Below are positions 3,039-59,179 of a stretch of 64,000 nucleotides of DNA, piece after piece. Both the position numbers and the translations under genes were made by a program. Origin of the DNA: Narcine bancroftii (Eukaryota); assembly GCF_036971445.1 (NCBI RefSeq), contig NC_091472.1:203484001-203548000 (forward strand). The letters are read 5' to 3'. A model generated the notes under the pieces. That model ran no database searches, had not been told where the DNA came from, and saw only the letters and a program-made list of their open reading frames with translations. The first letter of the stretch is position 1. Each line of letters opens with the position of its first letter.

Positions 3039-3485
3039 GTAAGTAAAATATATTCTTTCTGAGATGACGTGTGAAAATAATTAATTGAATTACAGTGGGC
3101 AATTTGTTTCTCCGAAAAGTTTCCTTCCTGGAAACAGTGGGGATTATGATCGACAACTTCAAGATGAACAGAAAGATAATTTCAGATTTGCTGCATCGTG
3201 TTGGAAGTTGGAGAAACATTGGTTTAACTTTGATTGAATTTACCGTCATCTTGACGCTGGCACATGACGTTAGTTGAACCGACCCAAAATGTTTTGCCGT
3301 TGATTTTTCGTTTGTATTCAGGCCCTAATAAGCTTTTCCTGGTTAAACCTTTCACCATGTTCGTTGAGCAGCAGAGAACTCCAAGTGCAAATGCAGGAAG
3401 TGAATTTTCAGAGACATGGTTCTGTGTGCTTGAGGTAGACTTAAAATATGGCAGGAAATCACAAAAATAGGTGGGATCTGTTTTG

Positions 3486-9445: not shown

Positions 9446-9480
<35 letters not shown>

Positions 9481-11400
9481 GGAGGAAGCCACCCTGCAGT
9501 CAGTGGATGAAAACTTACCCTTTGAGGTAGAGTGTGACGCATCTGATGTGGCTAAGAATAACTTTGCAATATTATGTTTTCCCCACCTAAACAAAAAAAG
9601 GCACTAGCAGTATCAAGGAACTCTTTTCAGGACTACTCCCATCCATATTGATTGGGAGGTTTTGATACATAACCAGAGCTCATTAGTTCTCATGGAGCTG
9701 TTTCAACATCCTCCACACTGTGTGAATGTGAAGGCGGAGGACCCTTGTCTGAGCTAACTGTGAACAGTGCTGATCAGTACTGTGAGGACAGCCTGTTGCA
9801 TTCCTTGCAAAGACACTACAAGGAAGTGAACTGCTCTACCACATTGTAGAGAAAGAAGTGATAACATTGAGGCAGTGCACAAATGGAACCACTGCCTGAC
9901 ATGACACCACTTCAGCTTGGTTACTGATCAGAGGTCAGTGGCCTTTATGTTTGACAGTAAAAAGCATTCAACAATAAAGAATGAAAAGATTCAAGAATGG
10001 AGATTGGAACTTGCAGCATTTAGTTACACAATCAAGTACTGTCCTAAGAAAGAGAATGTGGTCCTTGATGCTTTTAGTTGGGCGTACACTTGTTCAGCCT
10101 TTACTACCCCCACACTCGCTGACATTTCCAATGGACTTTGTCATCCAGGAATAACTCGACTGCTGCATTTTGTTAGAGCAAAGAATCTCCACATTTCTAC
10201 AGAAGATGTCAAGAAGACTTGTGCTTCATGCAGGGTCTGTGCTAAACGAAAGCCTCAGTTCTACCACTCACCAGGAGGGATTCTTATCAAAGCCACAAAA
10301 GCTATTGATTTCAAGGGACCCTTGCCCTACAGCTTCATGTTACCCATATCCACTTGCAGTAGTTGATGAGTACATGTTTCCCCTTTGCCTTTCCATGTCC
10401 CAATATTCACTACAACAGTGATCAGATGCCTGGATCTGCTATTTGGCATATGTGGAATGCCAAATTACATACTCTGATTGAGGCACAACCTTCATGTCCA
10501 AGGATCTTAAAGATTATCTCTCCCAGAAGGGGTTTGCCACAAGTCATACTACCCCATACCACCTAATCAGGAATGGACAGGTAGAGGTTCAACAGCATCA
10601 TATGAAAGGCAGTCAGTTTGGCCTTTATATCACGTAACTTGCTCAAGAATCATTGGGAACTGGTGCTTCGCAAGGTACTACACTCCCAAATATTGCTGTT
10701 GTGTACAGCAACAAATACTACACCCCATGAATGTTTTTTTTTTGCATTCTAACTGCCGCTCACCCCATGGGAATTCACTGCCCTCCTGGCTAATGAACCC
10801 TGGACCTATACTACTAAGAAGATTGGTGAGGAGTAACAGCAGCCCACTTGCAGATCAAGTTGAACTCCCAGTAATCCAACATATGCAAACATCAGGTACC
10901 CAGATGAAGGGGAGTCCACTGTGTCTGTTCGTGACTTGGCACCTTGTGCAGGAACTCGGGTAATCCCCACATCTCCGATTGTGGAACAAGATAAAAGAAA
11001 TCTGGTGAAGCCAATACTTGAGGAGGAGGAGGAATATGTGACGTGGCACAGTGTGGAGGATGAAACAGCTCCACGAGAACTAATGAGCTCTGGTTATGTA
11101 TCAAAACCTCCCAATCAATATGGATGGGAGTAGTCCCGAAAAGAGTTCCTTGATACTGCTAGTGCCTTTTTTTGTTTAGGTGGGGAAAACATAATATTGC
11201 AAAGTTATTCTTAATTATGAATGAGCATGCATTTCATATTTAGCTGATCCTGGCTGCACTGCTCCTCAGGTCACCTGATCTCTTGCTCTAATCAGCTTCT
11301 TGCTGCTGCCATGCTCTTTTAAAAATTCTAATTGCTTTGCAGAACTATTAGCTTTGTTTTCTTCCCATTTAGATTGTATAGGGTGTAGAATAATGAGCAT
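7981..11400 (+). mobile_element. Decayed Gypsy LTR retrotransposon (5'-truncated)
   Basis: Zinc knuckles (CFFCG..H..C), protease LLDSCST, RT PYLDNII, RNase H ECDASD/TDQRS, integrase HPG..C..C/DFKGP, and a PPT at about 11176-11189. Confidence 0.92.
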
Positions 11401-11735: not shown

Positions 11736-12396
11736 CTGCAGGGAAGTGGTTCGAAGAGAGAAGTGGTTGTTAACAGACGTGCATGAACAAAAGACGGCTG
11801 CATGAGAAAAACTGCAACACCTGGGTGGCCCTCCTGGGGTCCAGGGGCGATTATTGGGGCAAAGGTGATGGCCAAATCTCTGCGTAAGGCAGAGAAACCA
11901 AGATGAGTCACGTCCTTGTATTCATGTATACATAAATAATGTTGGTCTCTCCAGTTCTTAAACTATAAAAATGAAGAAAACTCCTGTATAATTTCGGATT
12001 TGTCCCAACACCCTCAATGCACACAGCAGCTGGACTCCCAGAACAGCTTTACTACTTTGAAGCGGGTTTTGCTGCATTGGAAGTATTAAGGTCAACTCTT
12101 ACCCGCGACTTCTTTTCAACCAGAACCTCGGACCCCCCTGCCGTCTTCAGCAGACGAAGTCCGCGAAAAAGGGCTGGTGTGTTTGGCGAGTGAGTTTAAT
12201 CCGGGCGCTGTGAACGTTGAGTGAACGACCGAGCGCTAAGGAACGGTGTTGAGTGCGAGCAGTTACCAGACTCAGCCTCAGACTGGAAGGTAAACCACCG
12301 TTACTGTGCCTTTTAACCACTGCGGGGAAGTGGTTCGAAGAGAGAAGTGGGTATTAACAGACGTGCATGAACAAAAGACGGCTGCATGGGAAAAAA
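11736..12396. repeat. About 75-bp direct repeat (11736-11810 and 12320-12396)
   Basis: CTGC(A/G)GGGAAGTGGTTCGAAGAGAGAAGTGG..AACAGACGTGCATGAACAAAAGACGGCTGCATG occurs twice with few differences. Confidence 0.9.
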
Positions 12397-14029: not shown

Positions 14030-14057
14030 GACTGAAGCATTTACCTGACAGTACTAC

Positions 14058-14991
14058 AGCTTTGCGGAAACTGCCAAAATGTTTGGCCTGGAAGTCAGCC
14101 TGAAGAAAACTGAGGTCCTCCATCAGCCAGCTCCCCACCATGATTACCAGCCCCCCCACATCTCCATCGGGCACACAAAACTCAAAACGGTCAACCAGTT
14201 TACCTATCTCGGCTGCACCATTTCATCAGATGCAAGGATCGACAACGAGATAGACAACAGACTCGCCAAGGCAAATAGCGCCTTTGGAAGACTACACAAA
14301 AGAGTCTGGAAAAACAACCAACTGAAAAACCTCACAAAGATAAGCATATACAGAGCCGTTGTCATACCCACACTCCTGTTCGGCTCCGAATCATGGGTCC
14401 TCTACTGGCATCACCTACGGTTCCTAGAACGCTTCCACCAGCGTTGTCTCCGCTCCATCCTCAACATCTATTGGAGCGCTTTCATCCTTAACGTCAAAGT
14501 ACTTGAGATGGCAGAGGTCGACATCATCGAGTCCACCCTGCTGAAGATCCAGCTGCGCTGGGTGGGTCACGTCTCCAGAATGGAGGACCATCGCCTTCCC
14601 AAGATCGTGTTATATGGCGAGCTCTCCACTGGCCACCGTGACAGAGGTGCACCAAAGAAAAGGTACAAGGACTGCCTAAAGAAATCTCTTGGTGCCTGCC
14701 ACATTGACCACCGCCAGTGGGCTGATATCGCCTCAAACCGTGCATCTTGGCGCCTCACAATTTGGCGGGCAGCAACCTCCTTTGAAGAAGACCGCAGAGC
14801 CCACCTCACTGACAAAAGGCAAAGGAGGAAAAACCCAACACCCAACCCCAACCAACCAATTTTCCCCTGCAGCCGCTGCAACCGTGTCTGCCTGTCCCGC
14901 ATCGGACTGGTCAGCCACAAACGAGCCTGCAGCTGACATGGACTTTTTACCCCCTCCATAAATCTTCGTCCGCGAAGCCAAGCCAAAGAAG
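14058..14991 (+). mobile_element. RTE-clade LINE, 5'-truncated, young
   Basis: Open 285-aa RT C-terminal region (FTYLG..RLAKANSAFGRL..QLRWVGHV.RM..RLPK..C2HC finger), short 3' UTR and a GAA tail. Confidence 0.95.
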
Positions 14992-18060: not shown

Positions 18061-18440
18061 AACAGATCTAGAAATAATATGGCAGTGTGCATTACTGCAG
18101 CAGCTCATGCTGCTTCTTTGTGGTTTGTTGTGTGTGTTTTCCTGAGTGTGTGTGTGTGTTTGTGAATGTCAGTTTTGGATGGGCAAGTTCTACCAACAGC
18201 TGGCAGGTCCTTCTAAACCTGTGGGCCAGCGTATCAGGGTTGCAGTGAGTGCATTTCTGCACTCCTGCAATGGGTTGGTTGCCAGGGAGCAGAGGGCCAC
18301 AATACAGGGATCATATTTTGGTTGTCTGCCAGTTGCTAGTGGTGTTCCTCTGGGGTTGGTGTTGGGATCACTTTTTATGTTGCATATTAATGGTGAAGAT
18401 TACAGAATGAATGGCTTTATGTCCAAGTTTGCAGATGTAA

Positions 18441-20440
18441 TTTTTCGGGATATAAACTGAACTTAAATAAAAGTGAATTATTCCCTTTTAATGGATGGGT
18501 TCCTATTTATGATAGCTTGCCTTTTAAAATAGCTAGAGACCATTTTATATATTTAGGGATTAAGATTACTAAAAAACATAAAGATTTGTTTAGGACTAAT
18601 TTTTTCCCTCTATTGGACCTGATCGGCAGTTTACTTACCAATTGGTCACCATTATCCCTATCCATGATAGGCCGAATTAATGCTATTAAGATGATGATCT
18701 TACCTAAATTTTTATATATATTCCAAGCTATACCTATTTTTGTTCCTAAATCTTTTTTTGATAAGGTCGATTCTAAATTGTCCTCGTATATCTGGCAAAA
18801 CAAGAATCCTAGATTGGGGAAAAAATATTTACAGAAATCTAAACCAGAGGGAGGGTTGGCATTACCCAACTTTAGAATTTATTACTGGGCAATTAATATT
18901 AGTTACTTAAGGTATTGGTTGAATTATTCAGAATTATCTCTAAATCCCCATTGGGTAAATTTAGAAATTAAACTGATACAAAATTTTTCAATTAGCTCTA
19001 TTTTGGGAGCTGCTCTCCATTTTACTCTTACTAAATTATATAAACAAATTGATAATCCAATGGCTAAACATACACTACGTATATGGTTTCAATTCCGGAG
19101 ATTTTTTGGCCTAAGTCATTTTATCTTGGAAACTCCTATTGTACTAAATTTCCTTTTTCATCCCTCATTAATTGATCAAGCTTATTTACTCTGGAAAGTT
19201 AAAGGTATAACATGCTTTTCGGATTTATTCTTGGATAACTCTTTCATGTCATTTGAACAATTATCCATGAAATATGATTTACCTCGATCTCATTTCTTTC
19301 GATATTTGCAGATTAGGAGTTTCTTAGTTTCGACTTTACCCTCTTTTCCCAATCGGGAGACTACGACTGTTTTAGAGGATATACTATATTCAAAATTCCC
19401 TCCAAAAGGTGTGATATCTAAATTATATAATATAATTACAAAAATAAATTCTGGGACTTTTGAAAAGTTTAAAAATAATTGGGAAAGAGAACTCAACCTT
19501 CATATTTCCAATGAAAATTGGAATAAAATTCTGCGACTGGTAAACTCTTCTTCTCTATGTGCAAAACATTCACTAATACAGTTTAAAGTTGTTCATAGAG
19601 CTCATATGTCTAAAGATAAACTCCATCGCTTTTATTCTCATATCGATCCTATATGTGATAAATGTCAATTGGAAATAGCTTCCCTTACACATATGTTTTG
19701 GTCCTGTCCCTCTTTACAGAATTATTGGAAGGAAATTTTTTCTATTATATCTACTGTTTTGAATATTGATTTACAACCACATCCCATTACTGCAATTTTT
19801 GGATTACCTATGATAGATTTGACTTATTTATCTCTTCCTGTGGATCGTATGATTGCTTTTCTTACACTAATGGCTAGAAGATCTATATATTGAATTGGAA
19901 AGAGGTTAATTCTCCCACTGTTTTTCAATGGTTTACCCAAACTATACTATGTTTAAATTTAAAGAAAATTAGAAACTCTGTCTATGAATCCCCTTCTAAG
20001 TTTGAGTTAACCTGGCGACCATTTATTCAATATTTTCATTTGTGGTGAGTTGATCTGGCTCTGTTTTCTTTCTATGATTATGTATGATAATTGGGCTGTA
20101 AGATGAGATCGGAGTGATCGGCGTGGTTTAGCTATATCTGTAGGTTTTTTTTGTTTTTTTTAAGTTTTTTTAATTCAGATTTGTTTTTTCTTCTTTTTTG
20201 GGGTTTTTTTTTCTCTTTTTTCATATATTGTTATTAATTATATCTTTTTTTAGAGATAGTTCACACTCTAAACTGATCTAAAAATTTTTTTATGATATAT
20301 TTTTATTCTGTAATATTATTGTTTAATATCTCTGTATTAATTCATTACTTACTATGTATTTTTTATATCTCTTTGAACTGTATGTGTTTATAAATAATAA
20401 TAATAATAAAAAGATTGAAAAAGAAAAGAAAGAAAGGAAA
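18441..20440 (+). mobile_element. L1-clade LINE, 5'-truncated (ORF2 C-terminal 458 aa open)
   Basis: YLGI..GRINAIKM.ILPK.LY.FQ..GGLALPNF..YYWA..CDKC..HMFWSC, then a T-rich 3' UTR and A-rich tail. Inserted in CR1. Confidence 0.95.
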
Positions 20441-33669: not shown

Positions 33670-36600
33670 TGTACTGACAATAACCACACCAGCCGTGCAA
33701 GTATAAGACAGCTTTAATAAACTAATATGTACATGAAGAGGTCTTGTCTCTCTGCAAGACAAACCTGGAAGGCTAGACTGTAGCTCTGGACTGCTTTATA
33801 TACAAGGTCATCGGGATGACCTATGGTGACCTAGTGGTGTAATTACATATCACCACATTCATCCCCTCTTTAGAAAATTGTTATCCCCCCCTCCCCTGTC
33901 CTCCTTCCCTTGTTTGTAAGTTCATAAGTCCCAATTTTTTGTGGCTTCCGTTGCTTTCTGGACCTCCTCAGTAGTGGTATAGGGGTGGGGCGTGCTAGAT
34001 GGCCATGTGGGCTGAGGATCCACTTGTATGGGATTAGGTCCTGCCATCAAGTCTATTTGTGGGGTGGGCGTATCCAAGGTCCTGATTTCGGGGTGGGTGG
34101 TATACTCCTCTGGGGTGACTCAATGGACAACTGTTCTAGTGACTGCTGCTGTACTCCTTGTTGATCTGTAGACATCTGTGTTTCCTCTGCGTTGTTCACA
34201 CATCCGGCCAGCGTGAGATCCCTGGTGGCCACCGAGTCTTCTCTTCCATCTGGGAATGTGATGAAGGCGTACTTAGGGTTCGCATGCCTCAACTCCACTT
34301 GATCCACCAGCGGGTCCGCTCTGTGGGGTCTGCAGTGCTTCCAGAGGAGAACAGGTCCCTGTGTCATCATCCATTTAGGCAGCACTGTGCCCGTCGAGGC
34401 TTTCCTTGTGAAAGAAAAGATACGGTCATGTGGGGTCATGTTAGTGGCAGTACACAACAAAGAATGTATAGAGTGTAGGGCTTCTGGAAACACTTCTTGC
34501 AAACTAGTAACAGGCAGGTCTTTGTTTTTAAAGTCAAGAGGACCATTTTCCAGATAGTGGCATTTTCCCTTTCGACTTGTCCATTCCCGCAGGATTGTAA
34601 CTTGTAGTGCAGCTGGTAGCAATCCCTCTCTCATGCAGTTACTGCTGTACTTCTGTGCTCATGAAAGCAGCACCCCTGTCTGTGTGTATGTAGTTCGGGT
34701 ACCCAAATATACTGAAGATGAGTTGGAGACATTTTATAACAGTGGCTGCTGATACATCAGAACACGGGATTGCGAAGGGGAAACGGGAATATTCATCTAT
34801 TATGTTTAGAAAATAGACATTTCTATTATTGGACGGGAGTGGGCCCTTTAAATCGAGGCTGAGGTGCTCAAAAGGTTTGGTAGCTTTTATCAGGGTGGCT
34901 TTGTCTGGCCGGTCAAATTGTGGTTTACATTCCGCACAGATGGGACAGTTCTTGTTCACTGACCTCACTTCCTCTACTGAAAATGGGAGGTTTTGGGTTT
35001 TAATGAATTGAAGCAGTCTAGCGACCCCCGGGTGGCCCAGCTCATTTTGCAAGTTCTGCAACTGGGATGTGTGGTTAAGGATGGCACAAGTGCCTCTGGA
35101 CAGCGTGTCCAGGGGCTCGTTGAGTCTCCCGGGGTGGTATAGAATGTTGTAGTTAAATGTAGACAATTTAATCCCCAGCGCAGGATTTTGTCATTCTTAA
35201 TTCTCCCCCTGTTCTGGTTATCAAACATAAAAGCCACAGAGTGAAGTGTTTGCATGCCAGATAATGTTGCCAGGGCCTTAATGCTTCCACAATGGCTAGG
35301 GTCTCCTTCTCTATTGCTGAGTGTCTTACTTCTGACCCCTGTAGGGTTCACGAGAAAAAGGCCACCAGTCATCCGTCTTGGTTTAGGGTGGCTGCCAGAG
35401 CCACATCAAATGCATCTGTTTCTACTTGTAATGGGATCGACTCATCTATGGACCGCATGGTAGCTTTAGCGATATGGTCCCTAATGTCCCTGAATGCTCT
35501 GGTGGCTACTGGGCACAGTGGGAAAACTGAGGCTTTTATAAGTGGGCGGGCCCTGTCGGCGTAGTTGGAGACCCATTAGGCGTAGTAAACAAACAGCCCC
35601 AAACACCTTTTAGTGCTTTCAGCGTGTGTGGCACTGGGAGGTCTAGGAGAGGGCACATACAGGCTGGGTCTGGGCTGATTTCCCCGTTCTGGACTATGTA
35701 GCCCAGGATTGGCAACTTCCTGTCGCTAAAGACGCATTTGTCCCTGTTGTACGTTAGGTTCCTTTTCTCGGCTGCCTTGAAGAAGTGTTTTAAATTCGTG
35801 TCATAATCCTCCTGAATGTGGCCACAGATTATCACGTAGTCTAAATAAGGGAACACCACTCATTTACTATTCAGTCCATTTCTCTTGAAACAGGGACACT
35901 CCATTGGTGACATCGAAGGGAAGTCGCAGAAATTGATACAGCCTGCCATCTGCCTCAAATGCCGTGTAAATGAGATCGCTGTTTCTAATGGCCAGTTGGT
36001 GATATGCTGCCTCCAGGTCTATGGTGGAGAACACCTTATACTGCACTATGTTGTTGACCATGCCTGCTATGCGTGGCAGGGGGTAGGCATTTAGTTGTGT
36101 AAATTGTTGATGTCTGGCTGTAATCCACTACCATGGGCAGTTTTTCTCCTGACTTTACTCCAACCACCTCGACTCTCCAGGGGCTGGTGCTTTGCTCTAT
36201 GATTCTATGATGCCCCCCTGTAGTAGCCTGCAGACCTCTGTCCTAATGAAGGCTCTATCCCTTGGGCTGTACCTCCTGCTCTTTGTGGCTATTGGTGTGC
36301 ATTCTGTGTTCAGGTGTGTGAACAGTGGAGGGGGTTCTATGTTCAGGACAGACAGGTTGCATTGTTGTTTCTTCGTAAGGCATAGTGGGGTGGGGGGGGG
36401 GATGAGGCCCATTGTCCACTATTGTAATGCTTTCTAACTGGCACTGAAAATCTAACCCCAATAGTACCAGGGCACAGAGGTGAGGGAGTACTAGTAATTT
36501 GAACCCTTCGTATTTTGTGCCCTTGATTTCTAGAGTAACCCTGCAAAACTGTTTTACCTCAGCTACAAGGCTGCTGGCTGCTAACAGGATCTAGTGCTCA

Positions 36601-39193
36601 CTTGGGCATGTGGGGAGGGCAAGGCTGTTGACTAACCCCTGGTCAAGAAAACTTTCAGTGCTTCCAATATCTATTAAGCAATTTACCCTCACATCATTAA
36701 TTTTGATCCACACAGTGGCGTCAGATAAATTGTGTGGACTCGCCTGATTCATATGTAGGGAAGCAAGTCTGGCATGTCCTTCGTGTCCTTCCATCTGATA
36801 GTGTGAGAGATGGGAAAATTGATCTAAAATTATGAACATGGAAGAAACTAAAATTCATCAGTTAATGGCTGTAACCAGTACAAACAGGATGAGCTTGGGA
36901 ATTAGGATGCAGGAAAGCAGAGTCAGTATGATTAACATAAGAATCTTCTTTGTGACAAGAGCCACCATAAGACTAAGAAAAGGAATGGTAAGGTACAATA
37001 GAATGTAGGAAGTTGAGGTAGTCTGGATCAGATAAAGGTCTCCTAGCCCTAGATAGAAGTACCAAGTCCTACATATCTAATTAGCTAACCTTACACAGAT
37101 TTATACATATTAAATTAGCCAACCCTAGACAGGATGAGCCAACTCTACATACCAAGAGACTGTAGCCCCGAGAATCAGGAAGGTGTGAATAAGGACAATG
37201 ACATGATGGGACACCCACAGGATACCCCCTGGTCCTCCAAGTGTATTGAACTGCACGTAGGCAGGAAGGATTGCCTATGCCAAACCCATCCAGGGGCAGA
37301 AGAATGTAAGGGGGAGGGCACTCTGATACTGAAATCGACTGTATAAAAGTTGGGTGAGCCCCAGTATGTGTGTGTATTCCCAAGGTAAGGGGAAGCACCC
37401 AACGTTGCATTGTTGTTGTAATAAATGTTCTTTGTTCTCAATTTTTGACTCGAGCTATTTCTTTAAAGGTAAATTCTGTTTCTAACAATAGTACTCAGCG
37501 TCATATTCATCTCCTGAAGACTGTGTCCTCTGCTTTGTAGCATTTGTCCAAGATGGCTGGCTACACATGGCATTCTTCTTCTTCTGTTTGTCTGTGGAGA
37601 AAGAAGAGCTTTCCCGCCTCTCAGTAGTATGAGAATGGGCCTTGGCTGTGGCCTTGAGGCTCCTGCAGACTTTTCCATAATGCCCTTGTTTTCCACAGTT
37701 GGAATAGACATTTTCTCTGGCAGGGCAGAGGGCTCTGAGGTGCTTTATTTGTCCACAGAAAAAGCACTTGGGACCCTCAAGGTGTGCTGCTGCGGTGAAT
37801 TCCTGTGAGGCAGCATTCTTTTCTTTTCGTGGGGCTAGAGAGTCCAGCAGTGTGACGTTTGTCCCAGCCCCAGGGTCCTGTGAGTACTCCTCCAATTCTT
37901 TCCTGGTGCTTTCTAAAGCTTCTGCAATAGTCTCTGCCTCATCTAGTCCCACCATTCCTTTCTCCAGTATTCGGTCTCATCTCAGTGGACCATATGCCCG
38001 CAACAATTCTGTCCCTAATAAGGTCCTCCGCATACTCCTGAGCTGATACTGCTTTAAAGTTGCAGCCTTTCGCCAGGTCTTTATACTCTCTATGAGAGTA
38101 TAAAGTCTCTGGCAGACTTCCCTACTTGTTGTGACCTGGCCATGAATCTGTACCGGGAGTGGAGTTCACTATGCCCCTTACTGTAATGCCTCTTTAAAAT
38201 GCTCATTGCCTCTTGGTAGGACCTGGCATCCTGTATAAGAGAGTAAGGGTGGTCTCCCAGCTGGGCTACCAGCAGCATTAATAGTTCTTTATCCAATGCC
38301 TCAGCACCCTCCACGTAATTCAGAAAGCATCTCTGCCAGTGGCTGAAGTGCGTGCTGGCTCCGGGATTTCTGGGGTCGAGCTCCAGCCTGTCTGGTTGCT
38401 AAGCCGCAGTCTCTGGTCCCTTAGGTGTAGCAAGGGTGGGCCCTGGGGTACTAGGAGCTGCTGGTAGAGCCTCTGTGGGGCTTGTGTCTGCTGGAGGACT
38501 TACCTGGGTGCTTGGGGCTGTTGGCTGAGTCTCTGGCTTTGGGGAATTTGCAGGAGGCTTAAGGGGGATCCCCGAGGTAGCGTTAGGTCTCCTTGGTAAT
38601 GGAGAAACTGCTGCTGGGGGAGTGATGGTAGTGGTGTTCTGCTTTCCCTGGGTCTGGAGTGGTTGGGAATTCTGCACAAGGCGGTCAGGAACATGACTTG
38701 TGGAGATCCTTCCACCCACACTTGTAGTGGCCCTTTTCTGATCGGACCGGGGTTTAGGGTTGGCGGCACCTGTACCAGCGAACCCACGGGCAGGCAGGGC
38801 TCTTGGCCATTTCTTACCTGCCCTATCGTACTTCTGTGGTCTTCCCTGCATTCCACCACGATTCCAGTACAGCAGTTCCTCGCTGTCTCTGTCCTTGGAA
38901 GCACGTGCGTGTTAGTTGTCCCCAGATTCCATTCCTCAGCAAGTCTCCAGGTGGTCGGAAATGCGCTTTGGAGTAGAAGCAGCTTCCATCCTAGTAGCTA
39001 TCATATTAGTTTATTAAATTATACTGACAATAACCACAACAGGAGTGTGAGTATAAGACAGCTTTAATAAACTATATGTACACTAAGAGGTCTTGTCTCT
39101 CTGCAAGACAAACCTGGAAGGCTGGTCTGCTTTATATACAAGGTCACCGGGATGACCCCTGGTAACCTAGTGGTGTAATTGCATATCACCACA
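33670..39193 (-). mobile_element. Full-length but decayed Gypsy LTR retrotransposon
   Basis: LTRs 33670-33857 and 39020-39193, 5-bp TSD AACAG, PPT next to 33858. gag RLELDP and zinc knuckles, PR LIDIGS, RT PYLDYV, RH, IN GHPG..DLKGP..DRG. Confidence 0.96.
36802..37487 (+). mobile_element. Solo LTR nested in Gypsy, TSD ATAG
   Basis: TG...CA ends; homologous to 26610-27139. Confidence 0.9.
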
Positions 39194-43071: not shown

Positions 43072-43996
43072 ATTCTGGTGCAAAGGTAAATTTCAGTGTC
43101 TTTGTATTGTAGAGAGTGAAGACTGTTTATCTAGTTTGTGGAAGATCGGTTGGGCAGGTGTGCAGAGGAAAGGCTGAAGAGGTTAATAAAGAGAAACGTG
43201 AGGTGTTGCATTTGGGAGGTCTGACTGGGTGAGGACGGACACAGTAAATGACAGCGATCTGAGGAGTGTTATAGAGCAGAAGGCCCTTGGAGTGCAAGTG
43301 CACAGTACCTTGAAAGTGGCGTGACGGGCAGATAGGGTGTGGTTCAAAAGGGTCTCGGCGCATTGGTCTTCATCATTCGGAATATGGAAGTTGGGGGGGT
43401 GGGGGGAATCATCTTACAAGACGTTAATAAGGTGGCATTTAACCTCTGTTAACCCTTGGTCAACGTGCGATAGAAAAGCTGTTAAGCTGAAGAGGATTCA
43501 TGAAGGATGATGCCAAGACCCAGCGGCCTGAGCTCTGGGGAGTGGTTGAACAGGCTCGGGTTTATTCCTCGGAGTGCAAGAGGAGAAGGTAGATAAACTC
43601 ATGAGAGGAACAGCTGGAGTCTTTTGCCTCGAGTGGGAGATTCCATAACCAAGCAGAGTGAGGGGGCAGAGATTTAACAGGAAACTGAGGTGTAACTCCC
43701 TTTACTCAGAGTGTGGTAGGTGTATGGAACGCACTGCCAGAGGATCTATTCGAGACAGCAACGCAATTGGGTAGGTACATGAAGCTAGTGAGCGGGCCCA
43801 GCGCAAGCAGGTAAGATCAGTGCGGGTGGGATAGTTTCGTGGGAACGGACAAATTGGGCCGAAGGTCCTGTTTTCACACTGTGACTCTGTCGCCTTCAAC
43901 CTCACGTCTCCTGGTGATCTTAAAATAATACAAGAACGTTTGACTTCAAATGATAGGGCTCATTGACAAAACATAGAGCAGTTGGCAATTGAATAT

Positions 43997-44002
43997 TTTA
44001 AT
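43997..44002 (-). terminator. Probable polyadenylation signal (ATTAAA) of the IgL gene
   Basis: About 175 nt past the C stop codon and followed by a GT/T-rich tract (TATGTTTTGT). Confidence 0.6.
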
Positions 44003-44174
44003 TAAACTGACGAGGCTTCGCCACAATTACAAAGAGAAAGAGGTTTGAAACATTGTAAATCCCTTAAAGCACTATTCTCTGAAAGGCGCCTGCACATAGA
44101 AAGAGAGCACTTAGGAAACACTCCCTGCCACTTCAGACTATAAATAACTGCGCACCGAGCCCACTGGATCGCTT

Positions 44175-44503
44175 CTACACGCACCCTGATCGCTGGATGC
44201 TCCGTGTCAGCTGAGATCCGAGGGACTCGTGTGTCACCCCGCAAGTGTACTTTTCGTGTGAGTTCCACTCGGAGGTGGACAGGGTCAGATAACTGCTCAG
44301 GCTATAGGTCTGATCGGTGTCCCGGACGGCGCGGGTGGTCTGCACACCAGTCTTCACCGCCTCATCGTCCATACTCCATGAAACCTCCACCGATGCAGGA
44401 AAAAAATTGTTGATCAGACACACCAAAGTCGCCACCTGTCCTTCAGCGACCTGTTTGTCCGCCGGCGGGAGAAGGGAGACCGAAGGGCTGGACATCGTTC
44501 GAC
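44175..44503 (-). CDS. IGL: Ig light chain constant exon (C1-set, lambda-like)
   Basis: ATTACAG acceptor in phase 1. Translation PSVSLLPP...ATLVCLINNFFP..VEVSW...TYSLSSYLTLSTSEWNSHEKYTCGVTHE...RSGCV*, with a penultimate Cys for the H-L disulfide. Spliced CDS is 49+348+329=726 nt and open. Confidence 0.97.
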
Positions 44504-47500
44504 CTGTAATTGCAAAATAAAGAATCGCTTGTGTTAAAAAACAATATAATGAATTGCATATTGTCAATGTAACTCTCGGTTGCTTGACGTTCCCATAATG
44601 AGATAGCAAGTCGCGGGGTTGTCCCACACACCACAGATGTGGAGTGCCGCCCAGCTGCAGCGCCGAAGATGCGCTCTCAGCGACGCACAAGGTATCCCCA
44701 CTGATCGGAGAAGAGCAACAGGAGAGATTAGCTCAATGTCCTACACAAGATTTATAGATCAAAGCATCAATAAAGCCGATTACTGGGCTACATTGCAGTG
44801 ACCGAGACTGTGTTGTGTCAGAATTGGTTCCTGCTGTTGCAGATTACTCCAATGTTGAAGAAATTGCTTAGAGAAATTAATACCTTCTGAATCTAATCGT
44901 CAAATATTCAATTGTCACCATGAGGTTTCTGGGCGGGCTATTTTCACCTGGTCTCTTCTTCTGTGGCGGCCTCTCAGATAGCCAGTCGATAGGGGTGTCT
45001 CCCCTAAATCCCAGTGAAGTTCCCTTTGCACCGCAGATCTGTGCATTCCTGGACTGAGACCATTAATCCTCTCTAATTAGACTCTTTGCTTATTTACTCT
45101 GTGACCAAGATCCTGCTGTAATCTTAGGCAACCTTCTTCGCTGGCATCGACACCATCAATTTTACTGTAATGAACAAACTCATTGATTATGCCCCTTCAT
45201 TCTCATCAAAATCGTTCATATTATGACAAACGGCAGTGGACCTGTCATCAAACCTTGGGGCACGCAATCCCGAAATCTGGAAAGCAACCATCCTGTCATT
45301 CCTCCAAGCCAGATTGTATCCAGATGGCCAGCTGTCATCTCAACGTCTAGGCCAGTCTACTAAGCGTTACCTTCTCAAAGGCTTTTCTGGGCGTTGAGAA
45401 GGCGACTCGAATCCGCCAATATCTCCTTTGTTTTGCAATATCGTCGTGCTTCAGGTATTGATTTGAGCCCTCGACTATCTCCTGTGACTCCACACAGAGT
45501 CCACCAAGCTCACCTGTTCTCTCCAGTTGCCCCGTATCCTTGACTTATTGATGTAATCTCTGAGAATTCTCTGTTACCTCTTCAACTGAAGATGGTCCTC
45601 CTCCTTCTACATTCCTTCTATACCCCAATGGATTTGTGGGATTCCAAGCTCCCTTTTCCCTGGCCTGGATTCCCCAATCCTTCTAGCCCTACCCTGCACT
45701 CCAGCAGTAAGTGTCTTTCCAACGGAGTCACATTCGCAACCACTTACCAGACGCTCCCAAATGTCCCACGTTATGAATTCCTATATATTAAACGACCCCA
45801 ATTTAGGACTCGAACGTTATACATAGATTTAAAGCTTATAGAATTATGTCCACTGGTCTCAATATATTGGCGCCCCCACCACTTCCGAGCCTCGTGGCCC
45901 AAGACGAGGTTTAATCCTGATGCTGGAAAATAAACGGTGTTCGTTGTAAAATCGGGCTGAAGGAGAGAGCTGCGATTTTTGTGTCAATTAAGTGCTGAAT
46001 TTCCATCAGCTGTTGAGGACAGATTAGTTCTCCCGGGCATTATTATCGGGATTTTTCCTGCACGGTATCTAACCCGTGCTGCTCCCGGTCCCGCCAGTGT
46101 TGACCGCGGCCGGTACAGAGAGATTCACTCCGTTTTTAAACGCAAGGTGATTCTGTCCTTGAAGTGTTTGGAAGGAGAATGTAAAGGAAAGATCTCTAAT
46201 CTGCCGCGGACCTGTGGGGTATTTCTCAGGAGCCTTACTAACTTGTGAATTAATGTCTTCCGCGTCCAATGAAATATTCACGGAAAGTTAATTTAAGGAT
46301 AACTTGCAGAATATATCTTCCTCCACATGGTCCTGCTCTGTTAAAAGTTCCCAGATAAGACATAGCACGCTTTCGACACCGAAGCAAAACCCTTCAAAAC
46401 TCTCACACGAGGCACCGTTCCATAATCGAGGACAGTGAGGACCCGCTGCTGCGGGTCATGTTTCCAAATGCTAATAACCCAATATGAACTAACTTTCCGT
46501 TTCAAGATGGTGGGTAGATGCTTGTCGCAATGTACATTGATTGAATACAAACTATTAAACTGCATTTAATGCAATTTGAGAAAATTTACAAGACAACCCG
46601 AAAGAATTCAATGTTTTCGGGGCTTACAGAAACAGACCCGCTGCAATCTATGGTGAGCAGAGAGAAAGGGCAGCGTTTCTGTGTGTGTGTGTGTTTGTCA
46701 TCGTGTACACGCCTGCACTTGCAATCCGTGGATAAAAAGCATTTTATAATACTCAAATACTTCCCTGGATAAACGCTCTTTTATAAAATGGAGGCAATTG
46801 CATTCTGATCTCTCTTTGTAACAGGTACGACAAGCAGGATACATCTATCGGGACTTTAGTAACAAGCCACAAATCTTGCTAGAGCCTTATATTTAGAAAT
46901 AACGAACAACTGATGGTGATAATTTGGTCGGAAAAATTTCTGCTTCTTTTTTAAAATCAATATAACGAGTTCGGTTACATGGTTTATCTCAATTTAAAAT
47001 TCTGTTGCTAAATTCTTCCAACCCGAACGGAACTAATTTCGAGGATATTTTTTTTAAAATCGGATTTGAGGATATTTGAGAAACTCCTGCTTTATCTGTG
47101 AACGGTTCTGATCGTCCAGCATCTCTCCTTTACCCAGTTGTCTTTTTTCCTATTTCGTTTCAGCTTTCCCCCTGTCTCGATGACGCCGAGAGTGGCGCAA
47201 ATTTGAAAAGTTTGGTCAAGGATTTATTGGGATCCCGAAAACGGGAGAACAACGTTCACAGTTGAAAGGATTAAATTTAAACCCATCTTCCTGCTCATTG
47301 GTGGCGACATTCACCTTTATAAAGCAATTTGCTCCACAAGTCCCCAAACGTTACTTGTTGTAGGATTGCTCTCTGAGGTGCTTTAATAATGATTCAACCA
47401 CGCGAATCCCTCACGCTGTTCACAATCTCTGCGTGAAGGCTGAGACTAATCACCAAACAGACCTTTTACTTCGAGATGCGTGCACAATTCATGTAAACAC

Positions 47501-47596
47501 TTCATTTTGAGCTATAAGCCTCACATAGATGCATTTTAGATGCATCCAATAAAAATAAGCAACTTAACTGCACCACATAAAGTAAAAATTACTTAC

Positions 47597-47944
47597 TGGA
47601 AACAGTCAATTTGGTGCCTCCGCCGAAGTGTAACGCGTTTGATGTCCACCAACCACAATAGTAATCGGCGAAGTCTTCCAATTGAACATTACTGATGGTT
47701 AAATACGCGGCGTTGTTTGACTGAGACCTTCCAGAGAATCTACTGGGAATTCCTGTTCCCTTTACCTCGCGGTTGAGATCGTGATAGAGGAGATATCGGG
47801 GAGCACTGTCGGGTTTCTGCTGGTACCATGCTATGTCACTGTTTCCCAACGTCGCCCCAGACACGCTGCACCGGAGCTTCACCGTTCCTCCTGGCTGGAC
47901 AAACAGCGATTGCTCCTGAGTTAGCGTGATCTCCGCGTTTGAAC
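47597..47944 (-). CDS. IGL: Ig light chain germline-joined V-J exon (lambda-related)
   Basis: Translation (G)SNA-EITLTQ...LRC...WYQQKPDSAPRYLL...GIPSRFSG...EDFADYYC-GWWTSNALH-FGGGTKLTVS, then a GTAAGT donor at 47596. V and J are fused in frame with no RSS. Confidence 0.97.
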
Positions 47945-48038
47945 CTAGAAATATACCCAATATGAGAAGGAGGGCGATCATTTACCTGCAAATAAAAACC
48001 CGCTCAAAAAATCCAAGCAGTATTGGACATTGACTTAC

Positions 48039-48087
48039 CGACTGCACAGACCGTCAGCAGAGTGAAGACTCCGATCCACGGGGACAT
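48039..48087 (-). CDS. IGL: Ig light chain leader exon (MSPWIGVFTLLTVCAV-G)
   Basis: ATG at 48087, 16 mostly hydrophobic codons plus 1 nt, then a GTAAGT donor at 48038. A 94-nt phase-1 intron ends in TTCTAG at 47945, the canonical Ig split leader. Confidence 0.93.
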
Positions 48088-48208
48088 CTTCAATTCGGAT
48101 CGCTGTGGATGTATCGTTTGCAGCCAGAAGTCGGAGTTTACCTGGTTTCTCTCTTTCTCTCTCTTATTCATACTCCAGATAGGGCATGTGATCAGAGACT
48201 CTTTTTAA

Positions 48209-48216
48209 ATGCAAAT
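48209..48216 (-). promoter_or_regulatory. Ig octamer ATTTGCAT (light-chain orientation)
   Basis: Perfect octamer about 120 bp upstream of the leader ATG. CAACTG E-box and TGACGT half-CRE motifs lie just upstream, and a TATA-like TATGAATAA downstream. Confidence 0.9.
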
Positions 48217-48364
48217 TCGCGCTGACGTTTGGTTCCGGGGATGAGCAGTTGCGCCCAGGACGCCAAGGCGGATCATGACGTTGCACATAACATACAGAAT
48301 GAACGTAACAAGCTGGCATTTCAACAGTACAGACACCGCCAGAGTGTTGCACTGCTCAATTACC

Positions 48365-51852: not shown

Positions 51853-53437
51853 AGATAGGGGATTCTCTGAACTCGCTAAAGAGAACTGTGAGGTGGTTTG
51901 CCTCCCTGGTACGAGGGATGTCCTATATATACTAAAGTGGGAGAGAAATGAGCCAGAGATTGTGATACATGTCGGTACCAACAACATAGGGAGGAAAAGT
52001 GTGGAGGTCCTAAATACTAGTAGAGGGAGTAGGTAGGGAGCTAAAAAGAAGGAGGGTGAAGGGGGTCATCTCTGGATCACTGTCTGTGCCACACGACAGT
52101 GAGGGGAGGAATAGTATCAGGTGGAGGATGAATGTGTGGCTGAAGGGATGGAGAAAGCGGCAGGGATTCAAGATTTTGGATCACTGGGACCTTTTTTGGT
52201 TTGAATAAAAAGCAAGGCCTACATTTAATATAACAAACAAGGTATAAATGAGATGCTTGGAAAATCACATTGATTGTAAAAAAGAATCTTAAGAAAGAAA
52301 TTAGGAAAGCTAAATGAAGGTATGAGGTGGCTTTAGCGAACAGGGTGAAAATAAATCCGAAGGGTTTTTACCAATATGTCAATACTAAAAGGAGAGTGAA
52401 GGATAAAATTGGCCCCTTAGAGAATCAGAGCAGACAACTGTGTGCAGAGCCAAATGAGATGGGAGAGATATTGAACAAGTTCTTTTCTTCGGTTTTCACC
52501 AGGGAGAAGGATATTGAATTGTACAGGATAAGGGAGGAAAAAGGAGTAATTATGGAAATTGTAGGGATCAGGAATGAGGGGGTATTGGAGCTTTTGAACC
52601 ATATAAAAGTGGATAAATTGCCAGGCCCTGAGGGGATTTTCCCCAGGACCTTGAGGGAAGTCAGGGAAGAAATAACAAAGGCTCTGACAGTGATTTTTAA
52701 AAGTCAATAGAAAGGGGTGTAGTGCTGGAGGATTGGTGTATCACACATATGGTTTCTTTGTTTAAAAAAGGATCGAGGAGTAAGCCTGGCAATTATAGGC
52801 CTGCAGGTTTGATGTTGATGCTTGGTACGCTAATGGAAAATATTCTTAGAGATAATACATATAAGTATCTAGAGAGACAGAGTCTGATCAGGAATACTCA
52901 ACATGGGTTTGTGCATGGAAGGTCATGTTAGATAAATCTTGTTGAATTTTTGGGGAGGTGACTAGAATGTATATAATGCAGTGGGTGTTGTCTAAATGGA
53001 TTTCGGTAAGGCCTTCATTAAGGTTCCACATGGAAGGTTAGTAAGAAAGATTCAAACGCTAGGTATTAATTTTGCGATAGTCAAATGGGTTCATCAGTGC
53101 CCAGAAGGTAGATACCAGAGAGTCATGGTGGATAACTGTCTGTCAGGATGGAGGCCAGTAATAAGTGAAGTGCTTCAGGGATTAGTATTGGGTCCCTTGT
53201 TATTTATCATGTACATTAATAATTTGGATGATGGAGTGGTAAACTGAATTAGTAAATATGTGGAAAAATAAATTAAAACAGGACATATGCAGTAAACTGG
53301 GGGACATTGAAGAACGCAGATGAACAGAAAGATCCATTGTTCATCATTCTTTAAAGGTGAAATCTCATGTAGATCAGGTGGTGAAGAAAGCGTTTGGTAT
53401 GCTGGCCTTTATAAATCATAGCATAGAATATAAGAGT

Positions 53438-56400
53438 AGAATTTTATCTGACCATTCATTGTTGTTGACCTTTTGTTTAGATACCGAGAAGGTAGCAAAT
53501 ACTTATCATTGGAGATTTAATGAGATGTTATTAAAAAGACGAGTTTATTAAATATATTAGGGAACAAATTATTTTTTATTTAAAAATGAATCAGGATTCA
53601 GTACAAAGTAAATTTGTTTAATGGGATGCTTTAAAAGCATATTTGATAGGTCAGATCATTAGTTATACAGCTAGAATTAAAAGACAATACTTGATTGAAA
53701 GTCAAAATTTGGAAGAAGAAATCGAAAAGTTAGAAAAAGAATTTCAGAAGAATTCTACTGAAGATAATAAGATCCATTTATCTAAATTAAAATTATGATA
53801 TAATATATTGCAATCATATAAATATGAAAAAATGATTCAAAGATCGAAACAGCATTTTTATGAATTAGGTGAAAAAGCACATAAGCAATTAAAAATGGAA
53901 CAAGCATCAAGAACAATTAATCCCATTAGGAAAGATTCAGAGATTACTTATAAACCTCAGGAAATTAAGGAGGAATTTTATAGATTTTATATCAAACTGT
54001 ATACATCTGAAAGTAGACAAAATACTGAGCAAATTGATTCGTTTTTGGCTAATTTAAATTTGCCATCATTGAGTGGGAACGATATTAATGATTTTGATAG
54101 TCCTTTTACGGAATTGGAATTAAAGGAAGCATTGCAATCAATGTCAGGAGGAATTTCCCCAGGGGAAAGATGGGTTTACAGTAGAATTTTATAAAGGATT
54201 TAATGATTTGTTGTTTCTGGTTTATATGGAAGTTTTGAAGCAGGCAACTGAGGTGGGTTTATTTCCAGAATCGTTTTCGAGGGCGTTGCTTACAGTTATT
54301 CCAAAGAAAGATAGAGATCCATTAAAACTGTCTTCTTATCGACTAATATCATTATTAAACGTAGATTATAAAATTGTTGCGAAAGTATTAGCGAACAGAT
54401 TGGCTAATTATTTGCAAAACTAGTACATGTTGATCAAGCTGGATTTATAAAGGCTCGATATTCAGTTGATAATGTCACTAAATTGATTTCTATAATTAAT
54501 GCTGCTAGACAACAAGCTAACCAACGATAATGGTGTTAGAAGCAGAAAAGGCTTTTGATAGCGTTGAGTGGAAATTTTTATTTAAAGTTTTAGAAAAAAT
54601 TCAATTTGGACCAACTTTCCCTACTTGGGTTAAAGCTTTATATACTAATCCTACAGCACAAATAATGACGAATGGTCTAATTTCATTGGCTTTTTGCACT
54701 ATCTTGATCAACTAGACAAGGTTGTCCTCTTTCACCAGTGTTGTTTGCATTGGTAATAGAACCTTTAGCTCAAGCTGTTCGGCAAAATTTGGATATTAAA
54801 GGTATTAAAGTAGGTGAACAAGAGTATAAGATTAATTTGTTTGCTGATGATGTTTTAATATATCTAACACATCCTAAAGAATCTTTGAGGATATTGCAAA
54901 ATTTATTACATCAATATGACATATTGTCAGGTTATAAGGTTAACTGGGAGAAGAGTGAAATATTGCTGATATAAAATGAGGATTATTTAGATTGTAGACA
55001 GATTACTACATTTAAATGGTCTGATAAGATTAAATATTTAGGAGTTATAGTTAATAAAGATGATCAAGACTTATATATTTTGAATTATATGCCTTTGTTG
55101 AATAAGATTAAAATTGATTTTCAGAAATGGAAAGCTTTGCTAATAACTTTGATTGGGAGAGTCTTTCTTTCTTCTTCTTCTTCTTTGGCTTGGCTTCGCG
55201 GACGAAGATTTATGGAAGGGTAAATGTCCACGTCAGCTGCAGGCTCGTTTGTGGCTGACAAGTCCGATGCGGGACAGGAAGACAGGGTTGCAGCGGTTGC
55301 ATGGGAAAATTTGTTGGTTGGGGTTGGGTGTTGGGTTTTTCCTCCTTTGTCTTTTGTCAGTGAGGTGGGCTCTGCGGTCTTCTTCAAAGGAGGTTGCTGC
55401 CCGCCGAACTGTGAGGCGCCAAGATGCACGGTTTGAGGTGATATCAGCCCACTGGCGGTGGTCAATGTGGCAGGTTCCGAAGCAATTTTTTAAAGAATTA
55501 AATAAAGTAATTCAGTTATTTTTATGGAAGGGTAAATTATCTAGGGTCTCTATGCATAAATTAATGTGGTGGTATGAATGGGGAGGACTTCAATTACCAA
55601 ATTTTCAAAATTATTATGAAGCAGCACAGTTGAAATTCATTAATAGGTTGTTTGATGTTCAACAATCAGCGGTCTGGACTAAAGATGAGTTGGATCAAAT
55701 TTTTGAAAAATAAATGAGTCAATTTATTTATAAATGGGATCCTTTATTGTTATAAAAAATATAATTTACCAGTATTAAGACATATATTGAATATTTGGTA
55801 TAAGCAGGATCAACTTTTAGGTTCTAAAGGGAAAATTTTGATTAAATCACCATTGTATCAGAATAAATTAATTCCATTTTCTTTAAATAATCCTTATTTG
55901 AAAAAATTGGAAATCAAAAGGAATTAGTATTATACAAGATTCTTTTGAGGCGGTTAAATTTTCTACATTTAATAGATTACAAATAAATTTGGTATTTCTG
56001 CAAATTCTATTTTAGTGTATTATCAAGTTCGAGATTTTTTTGCGAATACGATTTGGTAAGGAATTAATTTTACCAAGTCAATCAAAGTTTGAGATTTTAA
56101 TGGTTGACAAGGAAATGAAAGGATTTATATCGGATATGTATAGGTTGTTGCAAGAAAAGATGGATAAAGTTGGGATAGATAGGATAAAAGAGAAATGGGA
56201 GAAAGATTTAGATATTGAATTGTCTTGGGACGAATGGTCAAATATGTGTATGGATAGTGTTACAAAATTAATTAATGTGAGATATAGTATGGTTAATTAT
56301 AATTTTATTCATCAATTATATTTGACACCTGAGAAGTTGAAGAAATATGGATTTAGTCCAACAGATTTGTGTTTTAGATGTGAAGAAAAGACAGGCACTT

Positions 56401-57015
56401 TTGTGCATTGTGTATGGATGGACATGTAAGAAAGTTAAGCTTTTTTGGGAAAAAGTTATTAAATTTTTGAGAGACTTATTTACAATCAATTTGCAAATGG
56501 ATTCAATTATGTGTTTATTGGGATATATAAATGCTGTTACTTTGGGATTGATTGATAAACAACAATTGGCATTTTTGCGGTTAGGGTTAGCGGTAGCAAG
56601 AAAATGTATAACGATAACTTGGAAAAATGACGTGGAATTGAATATACAAAGATGACATAATGAATTGCAATCGTGTTTATATTTGGAAAAATTAACTTAC
56701 AATTTGCAAAATAACTACTCTTTTTTAATTAAAATGTGAAGTTTATATTTGGATTGTATGATTATTCATCTTAAGTAAGAGTTATGTAAAGAGCTGGCAC
56801 ATTGATTAACTAATTTTAAATGTATAATTTTTTAAGGCTCTGAGAGGTGAGGGAGGGAGTTAAGATTATGTAGTTAGTAGAGAGAGGGAGGGGGTGGGGG
56901 TTATTATAATCACCAGTATTATTTTTTTATACTTTTTCTTCTTTTTTATATATCTGTATTTGTATTTTCTTTTTTTGTAATATCTTGGAAAATTCTTAAA
57001 TAAAAATTTTCAAAG
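53438..57015 (+). mobile_element. L1-clade LINE ORF2 (decayed) inserted in CR1
   Basis: SDH, WDALKAYL, YRLISLLNVDYKI, AEKAFD, RQGCPLSP, LFADD, CFRC. 12-bp TSD GAATATA(A/G)GAGT. Confidence 0.93.
55163..55474 (-). mobile_element. RTE-clade 3' fragment nested in L1
   Basis: Reverse complement of the 14690-14991 family, with a (GAA)n tail. Confidence 0.95.
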
Positions 57016-59179
57016 GAATATAGGAGTTGGGACGTGATGTTGAGACTATTCAAGGCATTGGTGAGGCCAAATTTAGTGTACTCTGTACAGTTCTGGCTGT
57101 CAAATTATAGGAAGGATATCAATAAGGTAGAGAAAATGCAGAGGAGATTTCCTAAAATGTTGCCTGGATTTCAGAATCTAGACCTCAAAGAAAGATTGAG
57201 TAGATTAGGTCTTTATTCATTGGAGTGTAGAAGGTTGAAGGGGGATTTGATAGGGATATTTAAAATTATGAAGGGGATAGATAGAGTAGATGTGAATAGG
57301 CTCTTCCCCTTGAGGGTAGGTGAGATTGGAATGAAGGGTCTTAAGTTATGGGTTAGGTAGCAAAAGTTTAGAAGTAACATGAGGGGGAGCTTCTTCACTC
57401 AGAGAGTAGTGGCTTAGTGGAATGACCTTCCAGAAGAGGTGGTTGCAGCCGGGTCAATTTTGTCATTTAAGAGAAGGTTGTATAAGCGCATGAATGTGAG
57501 GGGATTGGAGGGTTATAGACAGGAAGCAGGTACGTTGGACTAGAGGAGATCACTTAGATGGGTACAGACAAGAGGGTCCAAGATGGCCTATTTCTGTACT
57601 GCAATTGTTATATGGTTATATGGATGAGAGTAGTTTGGAGGGTTATGAGCAAAGTGCAGGTAGGTGGGACTAGAGGAGATCATTTACATTGGTATGGACA
57701 AGAGGGTCCAAGATGGCCTGTTTCTATACTGCAATTGTTATATGGTTATATATAGACACACTTTCACTGTGATTTGGTTTATCTGAGATAGAAGAAAAGC
57801 AGCATATTAATGTATTTACCATGAATATTTATGAGCTACAACATAACCCCACAATCCTTGAACTCAATCCCCTGACTAATGTTGGCCAGTATATCATATG
57901 CCTTCATATCAACCCCATCAACCTACAAGGCAGCCTATAGATTTGGACCCCAAAGTCTTCCACACTGTTAGGAAAAGTGCCATTAACCATGTGTCCACCT
58001 ACAAGTTTGGCTTCCAAAATGCAAAACTTATCTGCATTGAACTCCATTCGCCACTTTTCCACCCAATTCCATGCCATCTCAATCCCATTGTAACAGGTGC
58101 AACACTGCCTTGGTGGTGGAGTGATGTAAGAGTTGAGCATGGGGTGTCCATCAAACACGTTGTCTGCACTGTGTGGTGTGGAGCGTGTTGTGTTTTGTTG
58201 ACTTACACTCATTCAGGCAATTTGAGAGCATGTGATTACACGCCTGACTTGAGCCCCGTTTCGAGGTTATGGGGTCAGTTAGTCACCACATGACACCGAG
58301 GCTCTGACCAGTAATTTAGCTAAATTGCCTGTATGGCTACTGTAGCTCAGTTTACAGTCAATGGTTCCCCAGGTTATTGATAATGAAGGATGGTAATGTA
58401 ATTGAATGTCAGTGGGTGAAAACTAGATCATCTCTCGTTTGGTGTCATTCTTGTCTGGCAAATGTGAGTTGCAACTATTTCCAGCTATCTTTCACCCCAG
58501 GCCTTGACATTGTTCCGGCCTTGCTCGATTTGATGCGAGCTGCTTCATTATCTGAGGAATCAGAAATGCTGCTCAACCCTGTGCAAACCATCAGCGAACA
58601 AATCTTCTGCTGACCTTAACGATTGAAGGGGAGGCGTTGTCGAAACTGCTGCAGATGTTGGAGCCTGGGGCACTGCCCAGAGGATATGTCCTGTGTCTGA
58701 GATGATTGACCACCAACAGCCACATCTATCTCCCTTCTGGCTGGGTATGTTTCCAGCCAACATGAGAAGCTACTTCTCATTCCCATTGACACTTTTAACC
58801 AGGGGCTCTTGAAGCCATTTTCGATCATATTCCTGGTGGTGAATGGGCTCCTGGGGTGAAGAGAATACCTTTAAATCGGGTATTGAAGAAGCCTGGCGTT
58901 ATTGGATTTAACAGAGGGAGAGATCATCTCATTGACCAGTGCAAGACAGACGATTGTTATGATAAGGTGGATGCTGAAAGGCCTTTCAACTGGCTATGAA
59001 ACTGGCTCGGGGATTAGTCTCAAACACAATCTTCTCCGGAACTCCCGCGGGCCCATCTGCATCAATGGATGTGAAGGAAAGGTGGCCGTTTCCATCCGAA
59101 ACTGCATCACATCAAGGATTCAGCTCTGAATATTGACCAATCTTTTCCTCACTGATGTTGCTTGTACCACCGGAATCTT

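Follow-up and report, generated by a model that had tools for sequence, protein, structure and literature searches.

Gene A, a germline-joined light chain gene of the ray Narcine bancroftii, and its low-copy relatives in cartilaginous fishes: a probable ancient second sub-isotype of lambda

The window analyzed here (64,000 nucleotides; G000:C9:203484001-203548000, G000 being the Narcine bancroftii genome) contains an intact immunoglobulin light chain gene with V and J joined, referred to as gene A. We consider it probable that this low-copy gene, which has a C domain of its own, represents an ancient second sub-isotype of lambda, and that its product is a fixed light-chain half, likely paired with IgM or IgW and made without RAG. 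By sequence comparison, gene A, a neighboring gene B and a set of chains designated G make up a low-copy lineage with its own class of C domain in sharks, rays and a chimaera; this lineage is likely an overlooked and ancient sister to the lambda class of sharks. Joined light chains were already known in cartilaginous fishes. The lineage is real, expressed and distinct from ordinary type II lambda, and the lengths of the A and B junctions are fixed across sharks and rays.

Gene A is composed of an octamer, a leader, a fused VJ and a C exon, with one open chain of 242 amino acids (window positions, all on the minus strand). The octamer ATTTGCAT, an Ig promoter element (48209..48216), is located about 95 nt upstream of the starts of the transcript contigs. 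The 5′ UTR (48088..48121) is given by spliced contigs starting at 48112-48121, which as contigs cannot fix the start site. Then come leader exon L1 MSPWIGVFTLLTVCAV (48039..48087), with its splice joint seen in transcripts, a leader intron of 94 nt (47945..48038), the exon containing L2 and the germline-joined VJ (47597..47944), a J-C intron of 3093 nt (44504..47596), and the C exon with the penultimate Cys and the stop (44175..44503). Both introns are GT-AG and are spliced out in the probable transcripts. The 3′ UTR (43989..44174) contains ATTAAA at 44002-43997 and ends where the full-length contig does, at 43989. The VJ exon encodes IMGT CDR1, CDR2 and CDR3 of 8, 6 and 9 residues, and the CDR3 or V-J junction, GWWTSNALH (47628..47654), continues directly into FGGGTKLTVSS. 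No RSS with 3 mismatches or fewer was found within gene A, and neither of the two 4-mismatch matches in 47001-48300 flanks the V-J junction. The residues that face VH (WYQQ, PR, YYC, FGGG) are retained, as is the penultimate Cys. The predicted structure shows the V+C fold (pLDDT 79), its top 50 matches being antibody chains, and a PDB sequence search gave mammalian antibody chains only, among the 60 matches listed. Gene A is an Ig light chain of the germline-joined cluster type, as seen from its octamer, its leader in two parts, its VJ exon and the one C1 exon that ends with the terminal Cys. A complete octamer-L-VJ-C gene, with V and J fused and no RSS, had been described in the first-pass annotation, and it is confirmed by the open frame, the GT-AG introns and the spliced transcripts.

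The database model P0004, assigned by its source to the electric ray Narcine bancroftii and with a C domain 100% identical to that of gene A, has an N-terminal extension of 28 residues (window 48088-48171, minus strand); its start is likely wrong, as it begins upstream of the main spliced contig starts (48112-48121). Elsewhere in the window, a decayed joined VJ with a frameshift is found at 2727-3043 (plus strand), its best match being the D-type chain P0055, and 9 kb downstream of it, at 12123-12290 (plus strand), are the broken remains of a type II-like C. Long open frames at 8735-10960, 14049-14933, 18397-19890, 34056-37976 and 52318-57357 resemble, by eye, fragments of LINE/LTR retrotransposons.

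Transcripts of gene A were analyzed in four runs (X5-X8), corresponding to four samples of one study and presumed to be RNA rather than recorded as such. Both splice joints were found in the four probable RNA runs, with an exon depth far above the intron depth, which is a sign of splicing. In X5, a single spliced contig of 937 nt covered the whole mRNA with 0 differences from the genome. The sole exon variant reaching at least 1% across the four runs was 47804 C>T (about 2% in X7 and 1.6% in X8), which changes Ala to Thr in FR2 and lies within a TGCT motif that we take to be an AID-type hotspot. At the same threshold, no CDR3 variant was present in the contigs of the four runs, from which rare variants are dropped, nor any of the letters diagnostic of the gene B C exon, for which alleles may differ. 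Since the contigs drop rare variants and the tissue of the runs is coded, the data show a uniform junction and hypermutation may still occur. It is probable that gene A is expressed with its germline junction.

Concerning copy number, a V search of the genome gave 54 matches, consisting of gene A itself and others of at best 47-50% identity, with no split (unfused) copy among the 54. The C search gave 90 matches, two of them at 98-100% identity and the next light-chain C exons at 40-45%. Gene B (L061; G000:C9:203596830-203602649, minus strand), 70 kb from gene A, is intact and joined, has an octamer, and its CDR3 is AVWVGSTSTFY. The alignment of the two genes is limited to 357 nt (98.6% identity) that span the C exon together with its acceptor. 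Their V domains show 45-47% identity. The pattern suggests that the shared C exon was likely produced by gene conversion. The A-B identity of C within a genus was 0.98 in Narcine, 0.83-0.93 in Heterodontus, Pristiophorus, Pristis and Mustelus, and 0.66-0.72 in stingrays and mantas, a variation which indicates that gene conversion is lineage-dependent. The description of gene A as germline-joined, and as possibly a minor isotype or an invariant chain, in the first-pass annotation is in agreement with these copy counts and with transcripts of uniform junction.

Sigma-2 and sigma are encoded on C12 and C8 of this genome, respectively, and type II has two intact genes at a distance of 1 Mb from gene A. 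The 11 light-chain V exons read were all joined, so joining by itself is unremarkable in this ray. No kappa locus appeared among 48 matches to a shark kappa query (150 of 207 candidates scored, hence a lower bound), whose best match in the genome was the C exon of gene A (50%), and no G locus among 56 matches to a G query (150 of 230 candidates scored, also a lower bound). Three joined VJ exons with a CDR3 of about 5 residues (L010, L019 and L024) were noted at G000:C9:2.88-2.93 Mb; in the V tree, two of them have long branches and are placed close to sigma-2.

Genes A (203.53 Mb) and B (203.60 Mb) and the type II genes (204.57-204.62 Mb) are all flanked on C9 by TOP3B (202.38-202.40 Mb) and SMARCB1 (205.79-205.81 Mb), which mark the mammalian lambda/VpreB region (PMC9614664). 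The TOP3B-SMARCB1 interval is the ancestral lambda address, and the gene A locus has a lambda position in the broad sense. A second SNF5-family match (G000:C21:120532716-120534033) shows short gaps between its pieces and an open frame of 650 residues.

A protein search with the C domain of gene A gave 32 matches from six ray and eight shark species: 22 at 60-100% identity (12 A, 9 B and 1 'G'), then a gap down to nine type II chains at 43-46%, and one IgM. Cluster look-ups added Carcharodon, further copies from stingrays and G-type cDNAs from chimaera. The orthologues are gene models, compared as proteins, and those of A, B and G bear generic names only in the databases. Several sharks retain A variants with a CDR3 of 6 residues, and A is duplicated in stingrays. 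In Heterodontus and Hemitrygon, the accession numbers of the A and B models are neighbors, and in four ray genera A/B and type II models come from chromosomes of equal length, which suggests that the linkage is conserved. Neither skates nor catsharks yielded a member in the word-indexed search, which cannot show absence. A length-limited search with V only gave two tortoise V genes among eight candidates. The basking shark chain P0055 ('D' type) has an A/B-related V with long CDR2 joined to a type II C, and this combination ties the two lineages together. Two divergent full-length light chains were also observed on long branches: P0149 (Chiloscyllium punctatum), near sigma-2, and P0161 (Protopterus), with no placement in the trees.

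The IMGT lengths of CDR1/CDR2 were 8/6 in 15/15 A and 13/13 B chains (the script window of 7 for CDR2 takes in position 66), compared to 8/3 in 19 type II chains and 5-7/2-3 in lambda-2. With P0025 dropped from the CDR3 comparison (region missing), the A CDR3 had 9 residues in 11/15 chains, 10 of which start with GWW, and 6 residues in four shark copies, while that of B had 11 residues in 13/13 and that of type II 5-12 residues among 19 ray chains. The identities of A between genera were 0.65 in FR1, 0.73 in CDR1, 0.71 in CDR2 and 0.60 in CDR3 (59 same-length pairs of 101), the last value being 59% for same-length type II pairs, from rays only. So, the conserved trait of the A CDR3 is its length rather than its sequence, and the CDR3 conservation across rays and sharks that the first-pass annotation had proposed to check holds for length (A, B) and does not extend to sequence (A).

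The trees were built with fetched sequences only, type II being represented by five of nine database chains plus both own genes, and lambda-2 by rows P0151, P0166, P0201, P0202 and P0204, assigned by eye from the supplement of PMC5985310. In the C tree (64 rows), support was 96/98 for A+B, whose sequences intermingle by species, 99/96 for A+B+G, 99/97 for type II+D and 98/83 for lambda-2. In the V tree (70 rows), it was 100/98 for A, 99/96 for B, 98/87 for A+B+G+D, 100/98 for type II and 99/86 for lambda-2. The V+C tree (49 rows; 7 rows omitted as near-duplicates and three as long or odd, along with D and the outgroups) gave 100/99 to A+B+G, which was one branch of a polytomy that also included lambda-2, ray-finned lambda, and kappa plus tetrapod lambda, and was set apart from sigma / sigma-2 at 99/98. 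Type II formed a starred clade of its own in the trees of V and V+C; in the C tree it did so jointly with D. Both V and C of gene A fell outside the type II clade in the three trees and outside the lambda-2 and sigma / sigma-2 clades, and its V outside the kappa clade, whose CDR2 is of 3. In AU tests, union of the A/B lineage was not rejected with type II (p 0.50 and 0.27), with lambda-2 (p 0.48 and 0.29) or, for V alone, with the sigma groups (p 0.115), and A+VpreB was rejected (p=0.025, one VpreB row). P0151 (Polyodon spathula) joined teleost lambda-2 in the C, V and V+C trees, in contrast to the absence of lambda-2 from Acipenseriformes reported in PMC5985310.

The mean C identity of A/B was 63% to G, 48% to shark kappa (one row), 45-46% to type II, 45% to sigma-2, 40-41% to sigma and 39-41% to lambda-2; that of type II was 47% to sigma and 40% to shark kappa. 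The C of A/B is no closer to type II than to the one shark kappa, which weighs against a firm placement within lambda. The V identity of the lineage was on average 44-48% to type II and 32-34% to sigma / sigma-2. These values bear on the first-pass reading of the C domain as lambda/type II-like, of which only a general family motif is left, and on its reading of the V as something other than ordinary type II, which is upheld by the trees and by the CDR2 (6 versus 3).

Among known light chains, the cartilaginous-fish type II lambda (nurse shark NS3) shares with gene A the joined VJ-C minicluster, the octamer promoter, a CDR1 of 8 and the chromosome region, at a distance of 1 Mb. On the other hand, type II differs in CDR2 (3 versus 6), in FR2 (PVFVW versus PR[YF]LLY) and in the variable length of CDR3 (5-12), which in A and B is set per gene across species. 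The G chains (Callorhinchus AFK11423.1 and AFM88275.1; Heptranchias XP_067861670.1), deposited as generic light chains only, are sister to A+B in the C and V+C trees and differ from them in a short CDR2 and a distinct V (45-48%). The PRYLL-type FR2 and long CDR2 of gene A are found in lambda V of bony vertebrates (sturgeon/paddlefish IgL3, turtle, tortoise, IGLV5-like, VpreB), genes which in bony vertebrates rearrange, with V identities of 49-53% to turtle, tortoise and IGLV5-like V and 41-42% to VpreB, but the V of gene A does not cluster with them in the V tree. The first-pass annotation had likened this V to V-lambda5, VpreB and sigma frameworks; the likeness to long-CDR2 lambda V of turtle and tortoise (51-53%) stands, while sigma (32-34%) and VpreB orthology (AU p=0.025) do not. 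Identity with a VpreB/lambda5 surrogate was rejected, gene A being a single VJ-C chain (AU p=0.025, one VpreB row).

In the nurse shark, sigma-2 NS5, whose partner is IgM1gj, and kappa NS4 are, like gene A, pre-joined invariant chains; both are expressed early (PMC2193156; PMC4279169; PMC5192425), and they offer a model of the way in which gene A may function. NS5 sigma-2 is another isotype, with 32-33% identity to gene A in V and 45% in C. The NS4 joints are recent, one of them within 7 Myr (PMC2193156), in contrast to the A and B junction lengths, common to sharks and rays. The joined state is typical of type II (PMC4279169; PMC5192425), and the type I light-chain genes of skate are all joined (PMC2192082). 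Four light-chain isotypes of cartilaginous fishes were still listed in 2025 (PMC12227049). No published description of the A/B lineage was found in the literature searched, where subscription journals are sparsely covered, and no passage on Ig light chains was among those listed from the elephant shark genome supplement.

The preferred explanation supposes that a tandem duplication within the lambda locus would have given rise to the lineage before the divergence of chimaeras and elasmobranchs, and that A and B diverged before sharks and rays did. The A and B junctions may each have been fixed once and then maintained by purifying selection. In some species, gene conversion limited to the exon would keep the A/B C domains alike and the V domains apart. 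The octamer would drive the expression of gene A in B cells, and the terminal Cys would bond to a heavy chain, the product pairing with IgM or IgW. So, gene A would make a fixed VL contribution, and the diversity of binding would be supplied by the VH of the heavy chain.

It is possible, albeit on the unlikely side, that gene A is an innate-like or surrogate chain which, unmutated, binds a conserved ligand or tests the heavy chains of early B cells, an interpretation compatible with the preferred one. It is favored by the A CDR1 and CDR2 being as conserved between genera as FR1 (0.73 and 0.71 versus 0.65), by a CDR2 identity among rays of 0.75 in A versus 0.58 in type II, by the near-germline transcripts, and by the precedent of the early-expressed joined chains of nurse shark (PMC2193156; PMC4279169). 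However, gene A is an ordinary VJ-C single chain with neither a VpreB-like tail nor a lambda5-like unique region, A+VpreB is rejected (p=0.025), several sharks have the 6-residue CDR3 variants, and stingrays have A duplicated.

An unlikely alternative is a separate isotype of the age of kappa, lambda and lambda-2, present in cartilaginous fishes only and merely linked to lambda. The C distance of A/B to type II (45-46%) matches that between accepted isotypes, and the lineage is an arm of its own in the polytomy of the V+C tree. Against this, the genes occupy the lambda locus, where type II lies at a distance of 1 Mb, P0055 mixes a related V with a type II C, and a union with type II is not rejected by AU tests. 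The difference between such an isotype and a second lambda sub-isotype is in part a matter of naming. It is rather unlikely that all of the following is true: a fifth class as old as kappa and lambda, two genes whose junctions pre-date the shark-ray split and were possibly never split by RAG, and an innate-like or heavy-chain-testing counterpart of the surrogate.

We regard as very unlikely that the lineage is the missing cartilaginous-fish orthologue of lambda-2, a class known from ray-finned fishes (PMC5985310) and mentioned in the first-pass annotation as a possible membership. Like A/B, lambda-2 has one or two genes per species and falls within the broad group of kappa and lambda; the two as sisters are not rejected (AU p 0.48 and 0.29), and that paper, finding no lambda-2 in cartilaginous fish, leaves its survival in some of them open. 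Membership nevertheless fails by the CDR1/CDR2 lengths (8/6 versus 5-7/2-3), by C motifs, by a C identity (39-41%) below that to type II, shark kappa and sigma-2, and by separate starred clades in three trees, with a small lambda-2 set of 3-4 rows. It is extremely improbable that gene A is ordinary type II lambda, or that a rearrangement of somatic origin was caught by the assembly, for although the joined state is typical of type II and the C family motif SSYLTL..SEWNSHE is in common, no nesting in type II occurs in any of the three trees, no split copy exists among the 54 V matches, the junction is identical in four other samples, and the CDR3 length is the same in sharks.

A fifth C class, at a distance from type II equal to that between accepted isotypes, would have escaped type II probes, and, if it is such a class, it would revise the view of early lambda evolution and of the shark repertoire, as well as isotype-exclusion studies. 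Junction lengths common to sharks and rays indicate that the A and B joints are much older than the dated joints of nurse shark, which makes them a test case for two views of fused VJ genes, as relics or as products of ancient rearrangement in the germline. Fishes are not known to have a surrogate light chain. With no kappa found in this ray among the candidates scored and near-unmutated transcription, gene A is a target for learning how fishes devoid of a surrogate test their heavy chains.
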